Below, piece after piece: positions 54,989 through 60,716 of a stretch of 64,000 nucleotides of DNA. Positions within the stretch are counted from its first letter, which is position 1; each line of letters opens with the position of its first letter. The notes under the pieces were generated by a model. That model made no database searches. It was not told where the DNA came from and saw only the letters and a list, made by a program, of their open reading frames with translations. The position numbers and the translations under genes are program-made. Location: the NCBI GenBank assembly GCA_965277805.1, contig OZ255842.1, positions 5,469,282-5,533,281 on the forward strand, given 5' to 3'. Origin of the DNA: Candidatus Lustribacter sp. GTDB lineage: Bacteria; Vulcanimicrobiota; Vulcanimicrobiia; Vulcanimicrobiales; Vulcanimicrobiaceae.

Positions 54989-56680
54989 TTAGCGCCGCTT
55001 CGGCGCCGGCTTTTTGGCTGAGGATTTTTTCACCGCAGGCTTTGCCGCGGGCGCCTTCTTCGCCGGTGCCTTCTTGGCGGGCACGGCTTTTTTCGGCGCC
55101 GCCTTTTTGGCCGGTGCGGCTTTTTTCGGCGCCGCCTTTTTCAACGGTGCGGCTTTTTTCGGCGCCGCCTTTTTGACCGGCACGGCTTTCTTCACCGGTG
55201 CTTTTTTCGCGACGGCTTTTTTCGCCGGAGCCTTTTTCGCCGGCGCGGCTTTCTTGGCCGGCGCCTTGGCAACGGCGGATTTTTTAGCCGGCGGCGTGGC
55301 CTTCACCGGTTTCGGAGCAGGCTTCGGCGGCGGTGCGGTCTTCACGGCTTTTGCCGGAACAGCTTTTGCCGGCTCTGCCTTAACGGGCACCGCCTTCAAC
55401 GGCACGGTTTTAACAAGCGCGGTTCTGGGGGGCTTCGGTGCGGGCGCGGGCGCGGGTTCCGGTTCGGGCGCGGCGGCTGGAGGTTTGGGCGAGCGCGCTT
55501 TGACCGGCGGCTCGGCCGCCGCGGCCGGCGGCACGAACGGCGTCTCGGGCGCGCGCTCCGGCGTGCTCTCCTTGGCCCGGGTCGACGATGCGCCGGGCCG
55601 GGCTTTGCGCACGGCCTTGGCGGCGCCGGCGGCCACGGGTTCCGCGGCAACGTGAACGGGTTCCGGTGCGGGCGGCGGCGGCGGGGGCGGCGGCGGCGGT
55701 TCGGGCTCGGGCGGCTTCACGTAGCGCAAGGCCACGCGTGCCAGGCGGCCGCCGATCGGGAAGACGAGCTCGTTGATCTCGAGTTCGTCGAGCACGCCGA
55801 GCACGGTTTCGAAGGAGTTGCCCTGATCGCGCGGGCTGTGCGCATCCGAACCGATCGCGATGCCGACGCCGCGTTCCTTGGCCTTGCGCAACAGGCGCCG
55901 GTTGGCGTCGAGATAGCGGGCCTTTTCCTCTTCGGGATGATCGCGATAGAGGAAGCGGGTGTTGAACTCGACCGCCATGCCCTGACGCTCCGCGAGGTCG
56001 AGCATCTTGTCTTCGTAGCCTTCGAGCGTCGCCTGATCGGGCCAATGACCAAAGATCGCGGGCACGTAGAAGTGGCCGACGATGTTGCCCGGCAGCCGTT
56101 CGAGGGCGTCGAGCAGCACACCCATATAGAGTTCCCACGTCTTTTCAGTGCCGACGTGATCGTAGAGCGAGGCGAATTCGGGGTTGTCGAACGGCCAATT
56201 CCAGTTGGGCCCGTGCACCGGATGTTCGATCGGAATGAAGTGCACCGACCGGATCAGGCCGTCGGGGCGCATCGCCTCGACGATGTTCTGGGCGTCGGGC
56301 CGGGCGCGCGGATCGTTGTCGACCTCGGCGCCGATCGAGTAGCGCATGCCGCGCCGCAGTCCCTCGGAGACGACCTGAGCGTGTCCGACGTCGACGTTGG
56401 CGGTCTCGGCGGCACCGTAGAGGTCGCCGGCTTGCGCGAGTTTGAGCGCACGGCGGACCAGATTGACCGAGGCCGGATCTTCAAACGTCAGCGAATTCAT
56501 GTGGTCGGTGACCATCATGAAGCGCGGATAGCCGCGGCGGCATGCGTGGTAAAACCACAGGAACAGCATACGCGCCGTCAGGGGCAGGGGACGCTCCTCG
56601 GCGTACGGCTTGTGTTCGCCCTTGGCGTGACCGTGAATGTCCGGGATGGCGTTGACGCGCGGATCGCGCTCGGTGTGCAC
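54989..56680 (-). CDS. PHP-domain phosphoesterase (HisJ-like) fused to a Pro-rich linker and a histone H1-like Lys/Ala/Pro tail
   Basis: DIHGH, TDH, GAEVD, SVH, GH and GSDAH PHP motifs; C-terminal KKAAP repeats; start GTG 56680 approximate. Confidence 0.85.
   Translation of the reverse strand: MHTERDPRVNAIPDIHGHAKGEHKPYAEERPLPLTARMLFLWFYHACRRGYPRFMMVTDHMNSLTFEDPASVNLVRRALKLAQAGDLYGAAETANVDVGHAQVVSEGLRRGMRYSIGAEVDNDPRARPDAQNIVEAMRPDGLIRSVHFIPIEHPVHGPNWNWPFDNPEFASLYDHVGTEKTWELYMGVLLDALERLPGNIVGHFYVPAIFGHWPDQATLEGYEDKMLDLAERQGMAVEFNTRFLYRDHPEEEKARYLDANRRLLRKAKERGVGIAIGSDAHSPRDQGNSFETVLGVLDELEINELVFPIGGRLARVALRYVKPPEPEPPPPPPPPPPAPEPVHVAAEPVAAGAAKAVRKARPGASSTRAKESTPERAPETPFVPPAAAAEPPVKARSPKPPAAAPEPEPAPAPAPKPPRTALVKTVPLKAVPVKAEPAKAVPAKAVKTAPPPKPAPKPVKATPPAKKSAVAKAPAKKAAPAKKAPAKKAVAKKAPVKKAVPVKKAAPKKAAPLKKAAPKKAAPAKKAAPKKAVPAKKAPAKKAPAAKPAVKKSSAKKPAPKRR
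55085..55183. repeat. Three tandem 33-bp units encoding the KKAAPKKAxPx repeats
   Basis: GGCTTTTTTCGGCGCCGCCTTTTT starts at 55085, 55118 and 55151. Confidence 0.85.
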
Positions 56681-56738: not shown

Positions 56739-56768
56739 AAAAAAAAAGCCGGCTGACGATCAGCCGGC
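56739..56768 (-). terminator. Intrinsic (Rho-independent) terminator
   Basis: 9-bp perfect stem GCCGGCTGA/TCAGCCGGC with a 3-nt loop, followed by 9 T on the minus strand. Confidence 0.9.
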
Positions 56769-56922
56769 GGACAAGGGTTTGCGCTTGGGAGAAGCCCGGA
56801 CTAGGTCCGAGCACCTCCAGTCATCGTAAAACCAGGTTTGGGAATGTCACTAGTAACGATAACCACCTCCTCTTGTCCGCCTGTTATCCTTCGCTAAGTG
56901 TGTTGTCTGAAGGGGCCGCGGA
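56739..56922 (-). ncRNA. Candidate structured ncRNA or cis-regulatory leader (three-way junction plus terminator)
   Basis: 10-bp P1 (56766-56775 with 56872-56881), P2 (56820-56863), P3 (56788-56818), two GGAGGTG motifs, no credible long ORF; 5' end estimated. Confidence 0.6.
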
Positions 56923-56971
56923 CGTAATATGATGGCGGTATTTGCGAACAGTTCTCGACGTCCTTCCGCGT

Positions 56972-57541
56972 TCAATTCTCTTGCGCGTCGGTCTCGAAGT
57001 TGATCGTGACTTCATCGCCGGCGATGAGGTTGCCGTCGAGGATCGGGCCGAACGTCATGCCGTAGTCGCGGCGGTCGATCGTGGTCGTGCCGCTGTAGGC
57101 GAAGTGCTTCTTGCCCTTCACCACAGCGGTAGCGTCGAGCGTCGTCGCGATGTTGACGCTCTTGGTCACGCCGTGGATGGTCAGGTCGCCCGTCAGCGTG
57201 AACGCTTTGGGTGTACCTTTCACCGATTTCTCGACGAACGTAATCGTGGGGTACTTGGCGACTTCAAAGTAGTGGTCGCGCAGATCGGCGTCACGGTTGC
57301 CGTTGCCCGTTCCGAACGCGTTGAGGTCGAACGAGGCGTTGATCGCGCTGGGCAGGCCGTTGTCGGCGATGGTTGCCGTCCCGGTCGCCAGCGGAATCTG
57401 GCCGTGCACTTTGCTCAGGGCTAAGTGCGTAACCACGAACTCGGCTTGCGTATGGGCCTTCTCCAACGTGAAATCGGTGGCGAAGGCGGGCGCGCACGTG
57501 AAGAGCAGCAGCAGCCCGGTCGCAATCGGTAGACGTATCAT
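56972..57541 (-). CDS. YceI family periplasmic (polyisoprenoid-binding) protein
   Basis: Signal peptide, HT...F...H, RD.DL....FE...YP.I.F, GDLTIHGVTK, IDRRDYG. Confidence 0.92.
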   Translation of the reverse strand: MIRLPIATGLLLLFTCAPAFATDFTLEKAHTQAEFVVTHLALSKVHGQIPLATGTATIADNGLPSAINASFDLNAFGTGNGNRDADLRDHYFEVAKYPTITFVEKSVKGTPKAFTLTGDLTIHGVTKSVNIATTLDATAVVKGKKHFAYSGTTTIDRRDYGMTFGPILDGNLIAGDEVTINFETDAQEN

Positions 57542-57623: not shown

Positions 57624-58514
57624 ATGGAGAAAATCGTTCCTTTGACGGGTTTGCGCGTGCGCGGCCCGCTCGGCGTCGCTCACCTGCCGCGATTGTGGCT
57701 CAAATGCGTACTCGGCGCCGCCGGCGCCCTGCCCGAGGGCTACACGACGACGCACGTCGGCACGAACGCGAGCGTCGTCGACGGCATCGGCCTCGATCCC
57801 GAAGCGACGTACGCGTATCTCACCGGCGGTCCGGCCTACGCCGCGTTTGAAGATTGGGTGCGCGCGCATGCGACGAAACTCGATATCGAATCGATCGCAC
57901 TCGTCAACACCCGCGTCGAAGCGCACCAGAAACCGGCAGCAAATGCGGCTGAAGTGCGCGCGCGTACCGGCGTGACCGATGCGTCGATCGGCGGCGCCGC
58001 GCTGCTGAACGAACTCGATGATTGGGCGACGCTACACGCGGCGCTCGCGGCGAACGCAGGCGGCACGCCGGAACCGATCGTTCCCGCCGTGAGCACGCAG
58101 AGCACGGGACCGCTCGGGCTGATGCACCTGCCGCGCTTTTGGATGAAGGCGACGCTGCACGCCGCGGGCGCGCTGTGGGACGATTGGAAATCCGGACCCG
58201 ACAGCCCACTCGACATGTGGTTCTGCGCGGCGATCGGGCTCGACACCGCGACCGCGATCGCGCACATCAAGGCGCAGCGCCCGTCGTATATGGCGTTCGA
58301 AGGCTGGGTGCGCGCGAGCCTTCCGAATCTTGGTCCGGCGGAAATCGCCGCGACCAACGCCACGCTGAAGGGACGTCAGAAACCGGAAGAAGTCGCCGCG
58401 CGCGAACGCGCGCTACTCGGCCTCACGGACACGGATTACCGGCCGTCGATCGAGCTCAACGACCAAGTCGATTGGCACCAGCTCCACGCAAATCTCGCGG
58501 AGCGTGTCGCCTAA
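57624..58514 (+). CDS. Tandem DUF5069-like domain protein
   Basis: Two internal repeats GPLG..HLPR.W.K...AAGAL...GLD....P.Y.AFE.WVRA...QKP...LN...DW..LHA; AGGAAG RBS. Confidence 0.75.
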   Translation: MEKIVPLTGLRVRGPLGVAHLPRLWLKCVLGAAGALPEGYTTTHVGTNASVVDGIGLDPEATYAYLTGGPAYAAFEDWVRAHATKLDIESIALVNTRVEAHQKPAANAAEVRARTGVTDASIGGAALLNELDDWATLHAALAANAGGTPEPIVPAVSTQSTGPLGLMHLPRFWMKATLHAAGALWDDWKSGPDSPLDMWFCAAIGLDTATAIAHIKAQRPSYMAFEGWVRASLPNLGPAEIAATNATLKGRQKPEEVAARERALLGLTDTDYRPSIELNDQVDWHQLHANLAERVA

Positions 58515-59245
58515 CGTTTGTAGCTGTGGCAGCCTTCGAGTTCGAGGATGCGCGCTTTCACGTCGATGCCGTACTCGTAGTTGTGAAGCCGGCCTTCGCA
58601 GTCGACGACGCGGTGACACGGATACAGTAGCGGCACGGGATTGCGGGCCATGACGCCGCCGACGGCGCGCGCAGCGTTGGGCTGACCGATGGCGGCCGCG
58701 ACCCAGCCGTAGCTGCGCACTTCACCGGCCGGTATCTTGGCCGTCGCGCGCAGCGTCGCTTGTTCGAACGGCGTCAGCTCGCTGATGTCGACGCGCGCGA
58801 GATCGCTCACGTGCGTGCGGAAGAAGGCGCTGAGCGTATCGCTCACCCAAGCCGGTGCGGTCGACGGAACGACGCTGCGGCCCAGGCGCGATTTGATGCG
58901 CTGAAACGCGGCTTCATCGCCTTCACCGCGATCGAGCGCGACGTAGGTGATCCCGCTTTCGCGGAAGGCGACGAACAACTGCCCGAGCGGCGAGTGCATC
59001 TTCGCGACGCTGTCGGGCACGGTCGCGCGCACGGCGGTGCGGATGTGGTCGATGATTTTCGGTACGAGGGTCGCGGGCGGTTCCGGCGGCGGCAAGCACG
59101 TCAGGCAATATGCAATGCCTTCGTACTGCTCGTAGAGTTCCTGACACGGCGGGCACTCGCGGAGGTGTTTGATGATCTGCTTGCGTTGGGGTTCCAGCGC
59201 ATCGCGCATGTCATCCCAAAGCTTTTCAACGTCACAGCAGCGCAT
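58511..59245 (-). CDS. ZAS (zf-HC2) anti-sigma domain fused to methylated-DNA-protein-cysteine methyltransferase (Ogt-like)
   Basis: C3-x23-H27-x3-C31-x2-C34; SPLG, LTPFEQ..L, GEVRSY, ARAVG..MARNP, PCHRV active site. Confidence 0.9.
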   Translation of the reverse strand: MRCCDVEKLWDDMRDALEPQRKQIIKHLRECPPCQELYEQYEGIAYCLTCLPPPEPPATLVPKIIDHIRTAVRATVPDSVAKMHSPLGQLFVAFRESGITYVALDRGEGDEAAFQRIKSRLGRSVVPSTAPAWVSDTLSAFFRTHVSDLARVDISELTPFEQATLRATAKIPAGEVRSYGWVAAAIGQPNAARAVGGVMARNPVPLLYPCHRVVDCEGRLHNYEYGIDVKARILELEGCHSYKR

Positions 59246-59908
59246 CTAGTCGTCCTCCTCGATCGCGGAATTCTCGGACGCCACCATCCGGCCGACTTGG
59301 GGACCCAGAATCCGGCGGAGAATGCGCACGGCCCGATGGACGTGCGATTTCACGGTCCCGATCGGCTGATTGAGAATCTCCGCGATTTCCGGGTGGCTGC
59401 GTCCCTCGACGAAACGCAGCGTGGCCGCAGCACGCAAGTGCATCGGCAATTGGAGCAAAGCTTGTTCGACCAGCACCATGTCGGCCGCGCGGTCGACGAT
59501 GGCTTCGGGCTGATCGGGACCCTCTTGGGTCTCGTTGAGCAACGCGTCGGGATCGGCCAGCGAGTCGAGCGCGACGTTCGTCGGACGCTTCGAACGCAGG
59601 CGGTTGCGCGTGACGTTCAGCGTGATCGTATAGAGCCACGGCTGAAGGCGCAGCTCGGCGCGCTGCTGGGGATCCATTTTGGCCAGGGCGCGGTAGGCGC
59701 GAACGAACGAGTCCTGGACGATCTCTTCGGCGTCTTCGCGGTTGCCGGTCATGCGCAGGGCAAAGCCGTAGAGGCGCCGCTGGTAGTCATCGACGATCGC
59801 TTCGAAGTTCTCGGGACCAGGCACACCCTTGGTTTGGCGGGCCGGTTGCGGCATCAGCGCCGGAGCGGACAAACGGTAATCCCCAAGGATCGGTGCGAAC
59901 GCACTCAT
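59246..59908 (-). CDS. ECF sigma-70 family sigma factor
   Basis: Region 2 DAEEIVQDSFVRAY..WLYTITLN..RN; region 4 EIAEIL..PIGTVKSHVHRA; start 59908 or 59854. Confidence 0.93.
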   Translation of the reverse strand: MSAFAPILGDYRLSAPALMPQPARQTKGVPGPENFEAIVDDYQRRLYGFALRMTGNREDAEEIVQDSFVRAYRALAKMDPQQRAELRLQPWLYTITLNVTRNRLRSKRPTNVALDSLADPDALLNETQEGPDQPEAIVDRAADMVLVEQALLQLPMHLRAAATLRFVEGRSHPEIAEILNQPIGTVKSHVHRAVRILRRILGPQVGRMVASENSAIEEDD

Positions 59909-59978
59909 CACGAGCCCTAACCGCGCTCGCACAAGCGGCGGTTTCGCAATTTCGGAAAGAACGCTTGATCTTCCCGGG

Positions 59979-60716
59979 TTAAGGGCCCGTTTGCGGTCGA
60001 ATCGTCCTTTTGTACACGATCGTGACCGGATCGTTTTGGCCACTGCCGGCAACCCGGCCCTCGATCTGGAGCGTCGCGTCGAGCGCCATCAGCAGCGCGT
60101 CGGCATAGGCGTAGTAGGCGGTGCCGTTCATCGTGATCGTGCCGCTCAGCGCGGTCGTGGGGCGGTCGGGCAGGGCTCCGTTGAGCGGTCCGTGGGCCGT
60201 AAACGCGATGCCGAGGACGCGCCGGCCGTTTAGGGAGCCGTCGGGCAGACGCCGCAGGGAACCGTGCAAGAGAGCGCCCGTCATCGGCGAGGGAAAGTCG
60301 AACGGAACCGCGCGCGTGAGGCTGTGCAGATCGCGCAGCGTCGGCGCATCCAGCTCGATCGAAAACGGCTGGTTGAGAATCGTCAGGTAGTCGGGATCGC
60401 CGTCGGACTCGTCGCGCTGTTCGCCGTTGGCCATGATCTTCGTCGAAAAAGCGCCGGTCGCTTTGGTGGCTGCGCCGCTTTCACGGCGGTTGTAGTTCAC
60501 GGTCGCGGTGAACTGCGTTACCGTTCCTTGACGTTCGATCGCCAGCCGCTGTGTGCCGGCGTACACGATCTGCGTCCGATCGGCATGTCCCGCGACTTGA
60601 TAGCTGTCTTCCCCGTCGATCGAATACCACTGCACCGGCGCGTCGGCCAAAACGGGTGCTGCAGCGCACAGTAGCAACGCAGCAATGACCGATACCGTTA
60701 ATAGGCGGGTAGACAT
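59979..60716 (-). CDS. Hypothetical secreted beta-rich protein
   Basis: Signal peptide (..AAPVLA-D); start ATG 60716. Confidence 0.7.
   Translation of the reverse strand: MSTRLLTVSVIAALLLCAAAPVLADAPVQWYSIDGEDSYQVAGHADRTQIVYAGTQRLAIERQGTVTQFTATVNYNRRESGAATKATGAFSTKIMANGEQRDESDGDPDYLTILNQPFSIELDAPTLRDLHSLTRAVPFDFPSPMTGALLHGSLRRLPDGSLNGRRVLGIAFTAHGPLNGALPDRPTTALSGTITMNGTAYYAYADALLMALDATLQIEGRVAGSGQNDPVTIVYKRTIRPQTGP

Follow-up and report, generated by a model that had tools for sequence, protein, structure and literature searches.

The locus examined here raises the question of what occupies the minus-strand spacer of about 230 nt that separates the YceI-family gene at 56972-57541 from the PHP/HisJ-like gene at 54989-56680 in the window, by which we mean the whole stretch of 64,000 nucleotides of Candidatus Lustribacter sp. 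DNA that was analysed. The original prediction, made from the letters alone, had placed a structured RNA of no recognised family in this spacer, and considered that it could be a standalone small RNA, a micropeptide mRNA or an attenuator for the downstream PHP gene. We find that the spacer holds a real, conserved and unannotated small gene, both coding and structured, which is the front of a truncated DUF1858 gene and is covered by no family in Rfam, Pfam or NCBIfam. In our view the locus is best read as a structure-regulated micro-protein gene, a reading on which we would place about half of our confidence. Its features are collected in Table 1.

Table 1. Features of the element, with positions in the window
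Feature	Position	Strand	Length	Basis or remark
Whole small gene, proposed	~56925 to ~56740	minus	~185 nt	
Upstream block (cGCrAA ... CAyA ..), presumed promoter	56924..56946	minus		conservation
5' hairpin, purine-rich loop	56875..56923	minus		RNAalifold consensus
First GGAGGUG, Shine-Dalgarno (SD) motif overlapping the GUG start (56866-56864)	56864..56870	minus		invariant in 81/81
Micro-ORF, GUG + 20 codons + UAG (VVIVTSDIPKPGFTMTGGART, first residue read as Met)	56801..56866	minus		
P2, GGUUAUCGU (56864-56856, codons 1-4) with ACGAUGACU (56827-56819, codons 14-16)	56819..56864	minus		
Second GGAGGUG, Gly16-Gly17 codons and first base of P3	56812..56818	minus		
P3 hairpin, GCUCGGAC-CUA-GUCCGGGC	56794..56812	minus		stop UAG (56803-56801) at the loop
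P1 3' strand, CUUGUCCGCC, pairs with GGCGGACAAG (56881-56872)	56766..56775	minus		alternative partner of GCGGAC
Intrinsic terminator, GCCGGCUGA-UCG-UCAGCCGGC + U9	56739..56768	minus		consensus scan

Comparison with relatives places the 5' end of the element about 1-3 nt further 5' than the stretch 56739-56922 first proposed. The block just upstream is partly conserved in the 81 aligned homologues, with C12, A15 and A31 nearly invariant, and it travels with the element in genus g1, where the upstream gene differs; we infer that it acts as a promoter. A genome-wide count of its pattern, GCRAA-N15-18-ACGTCCGC, gave 10 occurrences versus 7 for the reversed control, and hence no regulon signal. For the same reason an ECF-type promoter tied to the nearby ECF sigma gene was dropped, which is also disfavoured by the finding of nothing similar upstream of the sigma gene and by the covariation that puts GUCCG inside the RNA. 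At the other end, a consensus scan recovered the 9-bp terminator with nine U that had been proposed; its stem (56768-56748) contains 7 G-C pairs and closes a loop of 3, and a T-run of at least 6 is found downstream in 123 of the 137 homologues.

Six RNA-library runs contain part of the stretch. In three of these, from three metatranscriptome studies, close relatives are represented by short contigs that cover 56753-56920 (a contig of 181 nt), 56765-56915, 56846-56917 and 56778-56895, with 5' ends at 56915-56920 and 3' ends at 56753-56778. No contig in these three runs joins the element to either flanking gene, where missing coverage is itself no evidence. Contigs of this kind cannot fix transcript ends, but as they cover the element alone they hint, weakly, at a separate transcript that begins near GUCCGC. 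The 181-nt contig (run X15) ends within the 3' strand of the terminator, at 56753, and carries 13 extra letters that form an A-rich tail on the RNA strand, which may come from a decay intermediate that was polyadenylated, or from an artefact of the library.

The frame that opens at the first GGAGGUG had been dismissed as a mere short GUG/AUC-started frame, and it proved to be a conserved ORF. It is open in all 26 of the first relatives compared, over 17-26 codons (one of them, L017, is cut by the end of its locus), with a conserved start, V-[VI]-[IV]-V-[ST]-[ST]-[DE], and a conserved end, T-M-I-G-G-x-x-x-stop, while the middle of the peptide is free in both sequence and length. Using a search pattern that left the frame unconstrained, and excluding one false match in a response-regulator-like coding sequence (L054), we found the distance from the GUG to the AUG to be a multiple of 3 in 119 of 120 distinct homologues, distributed over nine length classes (30, 33, 36, 39, 42, 45, 48, 51 and 57 nt); the exception, L079, has a distance of 38 nt and a broken frame. 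Stops between the GUG and the AUG are present in 1 (L079), 60 and 108 of the 120 in frames 0, +1 and +2, respectively. At codon 6 serine is written with both codon families (AGY in 62 and UCN in 21 of the 120 distinct cores), 118 of the 120 have Asp or Glu at codon 7, and exactly 3 codons always separate the Gly-Gly pair from the stop, except in L008.

These patterns indicate that translation of the frame is under selection and that the N-terminal motif is kept at the amino-acid level. Some positions inside the ORF are also fixed at the nucleotide level beyond the needs of coding (ACG in 100 and GGA in all of the 120 homologues), so that selection acts there on the nucleotides besides coding, and the RNA itself may be the selected product. 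The 21-aa peptide of the window has no match in Pfam or NCBIfam at E <= 10, a match of one relative's peptide to 'Phage_blade' with an E-value of 0.05 being noise, and three exact peptide look-ups found none among 15 billion proteins, a negative that says little, since gene callers ignore ORFs so short.

The minimum free energy (MFE) fold of 56739-56922 alone reproduces the three-way junction first described (-73.1 kcal/mol, z = -3.8, with 1 of 200 shuffles as stable), and remains unchanged when the 5' end is shifted to 56925. Among the helices originally drawn, P2 and P3 are conserved and covary in relatives, whereas P1 holds in part: 77.4% of its cells pair and double changes are seen in 5 of its 10 pairs, a measure that 26 of 500 shuffles also reach, but its core is invariant, and the short form of the element, where P3 itself is followed by a U-run, does not have it. 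A 5' hairpin, which also covaries, had been overlooked altogether, and this hairpin and P2, not P1, were chosen by RNAalifold from 81 sequences. Its outer stem joins GUCCG(C) (56923-56918) to (G)CGGAC (56880-56875) and its inner stem CCUUC (56913-56909) to GAAGG (56892-56888), with 98-100% of cells pairing and compensatory changes in 2+2 pairs in the MAFFT alignment and 3+5 in the model-fitted one. In P2, 97-98% of cells pair and one pair has a G-C/A-U exchange. For nearly all of the 95 sequences folded, a hairpin is predicted directly 3' of GGAGG; its stem is built from many different sequences, and its loop contains the stop UAG or UAA in almost every case. This is P3, in which 8 of 8 pairs have compensatory changes in both alignments.

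Taken together, the four helices have 89.9% of their cells paired in the MAFFT alignment A2, with double changes in 13 pairs and a covariation score that 0 of 500 shuffles reached; sliding the partners lowers the pairing to 27-48%. On the model-fitted alignment (100 sequences), which leans towards its model, 95.3% of cells pair and 17 of the 27 pairs have double changes. The 81 sequences have 29 invariant columns, a count that, like the others, overstates independence because the sequences are related. Three loci (L012, L013 and L021) come from genomes flagged as unpublished and account for 2 of the 81 rows in alignments A1 and A2 and 2 of the 100 in A4, and no claim stands on them alone. Judged by these substitutions, the 5' hairpin, P2 and P3 are kept at the RNA level. 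The segment GCGGAC has two competing partners, one at the 5' end (the hairpin) and the other at the 3' end (P1), both with compensatory changes, which suggests a folding switch next to the ribosome site. The predicted duplex between the ribosome-binding site (RBS) region and the 26 nt before the terminator averages -18.7 kcal/mol, versus -13.5 for mononucleotide shuffles, with z < -2 in 39 of the 81 (related) sequences.

The absence of a recognised RNA family was borne out, with 0 matches at gathering score in Rfam (release 15) over the whole 64-kb window. A permissive local scan by E-value returned sub-threshold sRNA models only, the best being suhB/mmgR with 22.8 bits against a cut-off of 41; the 3 hits that were aligned score through the terminator half, and none of the 7 extends 5' of ~56827. 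The corresponding leader in the sister family, f3, has 0 Rfam matches at E <= 1. In those parts of the literature on DUF1858 and on Eremiobacterota small RNA that were available to us, no publication on this element was found.

When 60 relatives and the own genome were searched at the DNA level, 25 genomes contained the stretch at E <= 2e-5: those of genus g1 (85-97% identity), together with further genera of family f1 and family f2, which belongs to the same order (68-85%). The 19 f3 genomes gave no match in this search. A pattern derived from the alignment gave at least 119 stretches in a collection of 185,579 species, and among the matches listed nearly all are from Eremiobacterota, Vulcanimicrobiota or WPS-2, with a few metagenome-assembled genomes (MAGs) otherwise labelled. 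A covariance model (R1), built from f1 and f2 sequences only and run on 150 genomes across the phylum and the own genome, matched 36 genomes, which are the own genome, 27 of the 71 in f1, the 1 in f2 and 7 of the 9 in f3 (weakly, with E-values from 9e-7 to 7e-4), and 0 of the 69 genomes of eighteen other families. The element, which was thus recovered from three families belonging to a single class of Eremiobacterota, is single-copy, with one match per genome in all 36, and in this search the leader was found only before the micro-ORF or its full-length homologue.

The matches in f3 point to the origin of the element. At all 6 of the f3 loci examined the match is the start of an ORF of 83-84 aa, which uses the same GUG as its start codon and has the sequence VVAVSTDSP.F...LTVGE, followed by a GGCxxC domain. 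In-frame stops lie 11-102 codons upstream at 5 of the 6 loci, so the GUG is the true start; the upstream in-frame extension at the remaining locus (L187, a stop-free frame of 488 codons with a weak ATP-grasp match) is coincidental, the five others being stopped. On TIGR03980 the f3 homologue reaches 47, above the cut-off of 44.95, and on PF08984 it reaches 23.7, below the cut-off of 32.2; public entries of 83-84 aa with the same start, MVAVSTDS..., bear the name 'hybrid cluster-associated redox disulfide protein' or DUF1858. The 5' hairpin, the SD-GUG and the first codons are common to the window element and the f3 gene, and sequence comparison shows the element to be a homologue of the front of this DUF1858/TIGR03980 gene, comprising its leader and its first ~20 codons. 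P2 is rewritten in f3 from AUCAUCG/CGAUGAU to GUCGCCG/CGGCGA, with two compensatory pairs (assigned by eye; our own alignment flags the mid-helix as non-standard). The domain itself (PF08984/TIGR03980, ~58 residues, GGCxxC) is absent from the window peptide, which ends before it. In the f3 protein, AlphaFold places residues 1-7 outside the fold (pLDDT < 50), the Pfam match runs from residue 14 and helices begin at ~17.

A full-length homologue is present in the window genome 3.8 Mb away, where it starts MPHFDKNLTV... and lies directly after another gene, without this leader. In micro-gene-bearing genomes generally, the full-length DUF1858 gene sits elsewhere and is not headed by the leader. 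Matches occur in 56 of the 61 genomes of the class that were searched, mostly as a single copy, and in the f3 genomes where both were located, the single DUF1858 copy is the leader-bearing gene. The simplest history would be a duplication or rearrangement in the ancestor of f1 and f2, after which the leader-bearing copy was truncated and its front end kept, so that an order of soil bacteria appears to have kept the front end of a redox-protein gene after losing the rest. Among the three options originally offered, we favour the micropeptide mRNA, in view of the frame kept in 119 of 120 homologues, the serine encoded by AGY or UCN, and the same start in the full-length gene of f3.

Some f1 full-length DUF1858 proteins keep a faint remnant of the N-terminal tag, such as MSIVSDQP. 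The f1 full-length proteins (G000:C1:1717411-1717800, L193; P0028-P0116) have a conserved C-terminal extension of ~65 aa, VRLPDEIR...GAYTVEFGDVRLQGLAEDFIK, which is absent from f3. In the 3' UTR of the f3 loci (L187-L192), CCACC[CU] is found just 5' of the terminator in 5 of 6 cases and complements GGGUGG spanning the SD and the start; the pairing of the 3' end with the RBS may be ancestral to the long mRNA as well.

The two perfect GGAGGUG motifs reported for this stretch are both present. In most relatives the first is part of GGAGGUGAUC, a 10-nt complement of the 16S 3' tail with the start codon included (the genome's own 16S 3' end is GGAUCACCUCCUUUCU), but GGAG abuts the GUG, at a spacing of 0 in place of the canonical 5-9 nt. 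A crude test in the own genome found long ORFs enriched after GGAGG-N5-7-ATG (0.41-0.46 versus 0.24-0.30 in the +2 frame) and not after GGAG directly followed by GTG (0.27 versus 0.25). Zero spacing should initiate poorly; either initiation here is deliberately poor, or the site also binds the 30S subunit. The second motif, whose sequence was described correctly, encodes Gly-Gly: the second Gly codon varies (GGU in 99, GGG in 20 and GGA in 1), though the first, the GGA invariant in 120 of 120, leaves an RNA-level constraint. Its GGAG can pair with CUCC (56791-56788), and does so in the MFE fold.

This start-spacing problem keeps alive a somewhat doubtful alternative, in which the RNA itself is the effector and would bind the 16S 3' tail or the 30S subunit via the two GGAGGUG motifs, or a protein or mRNA via the loop of the 5' hairpin, translation of the short frame only toggling or stabilising the fold. 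It agrees with the non-coding 5' hairpin being the best-conserved part (79-85% identity even at the order level), as well as with the invariance of GGAGGUG at both sites, the 10-nt complementarity of the first to the genome's own 16S tail, the fixed third-codon positions in GGA and ACG, and the appearance of the element as a short separate contig in several metatranscriptome assemblies. A pure RNA effector, however, needs neither a strict frame with avoidance of stops nor a serine kept in both codon families, and, less decisively, both SD motifs are predicted to be mostly paired, with a low and variable accessibility (mean unpaired probabilities of 0.36 for the first and 0.32 for the second, from partition functions of 92 sequences). 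Nor was a target found: a trans duplex with the own DUF1858 mRNA is no better than shuffles (-94.7 kcal/mol versus a shuffle mean of -105.4 in the window genome, and similar in 5 other genomes), a result that carries little information, as the whole-length RNAduplex comparison is crude. A more specific version, in which the front of the truncated gene was exapted as a ribosome-directed riboregulator, an abundant ~185-nt RNA, with two invariant complements of the 16S 3' tail and a fold toggled by translation, docking on the 30S subunit or competing for the anti-SD with the micro-ORF as a releasing switch, seems to us a long shot; if true, it would make this the first of a new kind of RNA, derived from an mRNA, that acts in trans on the anti-SD.

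The neighbourhood of the element bears on a second alternative. Upstream, 14 of the 17 loci scanned have an ECF sigma gene and/or a gene with an O6-methylguanine methyltransferase (MGMT) domain adjoining on the same strand, two g1 loci have YceI and one has nothing; in the window, the sigma-MGMT pair is two genes further upstream. Downstream, a same-strand gene was identified at 13 of the 17 loci, with pyroglutamyl peptidase (Pcp) directly following at 7 of the 17. Ten downstream ORFs were tested, of which 7 could be recognised as PHP/HisJ-like, one of them behind Pcp, and no downstream family was recognised at L010, L015, L020 and L023. This arrangement would suit a cis-acting leader, that is, a uORF attenuator for Pcp and/or the PHP/HisJ-like gene in which a ribosome on the leader frame decides on terminator formation. 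The constant spacing of 3 codons from MIGG to the stop, as in arrest peptides, would also suit it, and in the short form the stop codon lies in the loop of the terminator (P3 and the U-run), which a terminating ribosome would melt.

We nevertheless judge attenuation to be distinctly unlikely. In the long form, to which the window belongs, ~35 nt separate the stop from the terminator stem that follows it, inspection by eye showed no antiterminator pairing, and the P1 3' strand overlaps the terminator by only 1-3 nt. Codon-sensing attenuation does not call for a conserved N-terminus, short-form lineages have a conserved promoter-like motif ahead of Pcp, on the 3' side of the element (by eye), and, as a weak argument, the RNA contigs stop at the terminator. 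Moreover, in G145, which does not have the element, MGMT is directly followed by PHP with a gap of ~25 nt, so PHP need not depend on the element, and the attenuator for this gene that had been put forward as an option becomes less likely. The element is missing in several genera, including g41 (0 of 25 genomes), and is thus dispensable. Finally, these losses and its being a demonstrably truncated homologue of a longer gene might suggest a non-functional relic, a decaying 5' fragment of the DUF1858 gene, but this is hardly credible, as neutral decay would have erased the frame (all length changes but one are in frame), the compensatory changes in four helices, the promoter-like block and the terminator, whereas two families of an order have in fact kept the element, 29 columns being invariant among the 81 aligned sequences.

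The reading of the locus as a structure-regulated micro-protein gene can be formulated as follows. The element would be a self-contained minus-strand gene with a promoter-like block, a structured 5' UTR, a very strong SD over the GUG, a 21-codon ORF and an intrinsic terminator, the front end of an ancestral copy that was presumably truncated, with an output probably gated by RNA folding. During synthesis, GCGGAC would be held in the 5' hairpin and the ribosome site would be reachable, whereas in the finished RNA the 3' segment would take GCGGAC to form P1, reach the SD/GUG and close the site. The predicted product is a hydrophilic peptide of 17-26 aa.

Several known systems share part of this design. 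Dual-function sRNAs and small mRNAs that encode micro-proteins include SgrS-SgrT, RNAIII-hld, SR1-SR1P and AzuCR. The element resembles them in being a short (~185 nt) structured RNA that ends in an intrinsic terminator, has its own transcription (of which there is a weak hint here) and carries a conserved ORF of fewer than 30 codons, with constraints at both the RNA and the protein level. It differs from them in that its ORF is the remnant of a larger gene and contains a second SD-like site, that SD and start codon overlap, and that the stop codon is fixed in a hairpin loop. With the f3 DUF1858/TIGR03980 genes it shares the 5' hairpin, the purine-rich SD-GUG, the first seven residues (V-V-x-V-S/T-S/T-D) and the position of P2, but the window ORF stops after 21 codons, cannot fold as DUF1858, and has gained MIGG, P3 and the stop.

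Leader-peptide attenuators and arrest peptides, such as the thr, ilv and pyrBI leaders and TnaC, likewise have a short ORF (a peptide of ~20 residues) followed by a terminator and located upstream of co-oriented genes, and in the short form of the element a ribosome would cover the terminator. Unlike these, the element has neither an alternative antiterminator helix nor a run of regulatory codons, its downstream genes are not biosynthetic and survive without it, and the N-terminus is conserved, not just the C-terminus. Type I toxin mRNAs with 5'-3' fold-back control, such as hok and aapA1, also combine a small ORF with a 5' hairpin and a 3' segment that compete beside the ribosome site, the finished RNA being predicted to be closed. 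In contrast to those toxins, the peptide here is hydrophilic with no membrane helix, the element is single-copy and vertically inherited, and the same design is found on a full-length parent gene that is not a toxin.

The element would thus be a datable case in which the promoter, structured leader and first ~20 codons of a gene were kept under selection as a separate gene, and the intact parent in the sister family permits direct comparison. It offers a concrete model for the origin of small proteins or dual-function RNAs, and a testable regulatory RNA in a barely cultivated phylum, in a gene missed by standard gene callers.

Some further observations concern copy number and the neighbouring genes. 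In G040 and isolate FW021_bin.42 (L061, L099), the element occurs twice within a single MAG, on separate contigs, more likely a strain mixture than a true duplication, since all 36 genomes matched by R1 have a single copy. In two genomes without the element, the spacer between MGMT and PHP is a stretch of ~300 nt with long inverted repeats (G126, L207 ~1200-1500) or one of ~130 nt that ends in its own hairpin and T-run (G013, L211 ~1330-1460). In the short-form loci L022, L064, L065, L082, L146 and L152, a conserved block GG(G/T)AAC...CGCGGTTAAC...AAGGTGGCTAAG, identified by eye, lies 60-100 nt downstream, in front of the gene for pyroglutamyl peptidase; it resembles a promoter belonging to that gene, whose GUG start once more abuts AAGG. 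The PHP/HisJ-like protein of the window (54989-56680, minus strand) has 563 aa and is 68-72% identical across f1 genera; it falls below the cut-offs of HisJ-type histidinol-phosphatase models (72 versus 202 bits, residues ~110-306), and its C-terminal ~250 aa have no family match. The ECF sigma gene (58511-60052, minus strand, together with its partner; loci L007-L025) is followed by a gene for a protein of ~245 aa, and the pair is kept beside the element across the order; the last 80 residues of this protein are an O6-methylguanine methyltransferase DNA-binding domain, and its first ~160 residues, which have no Pfam match, could be an anti-sigma module.
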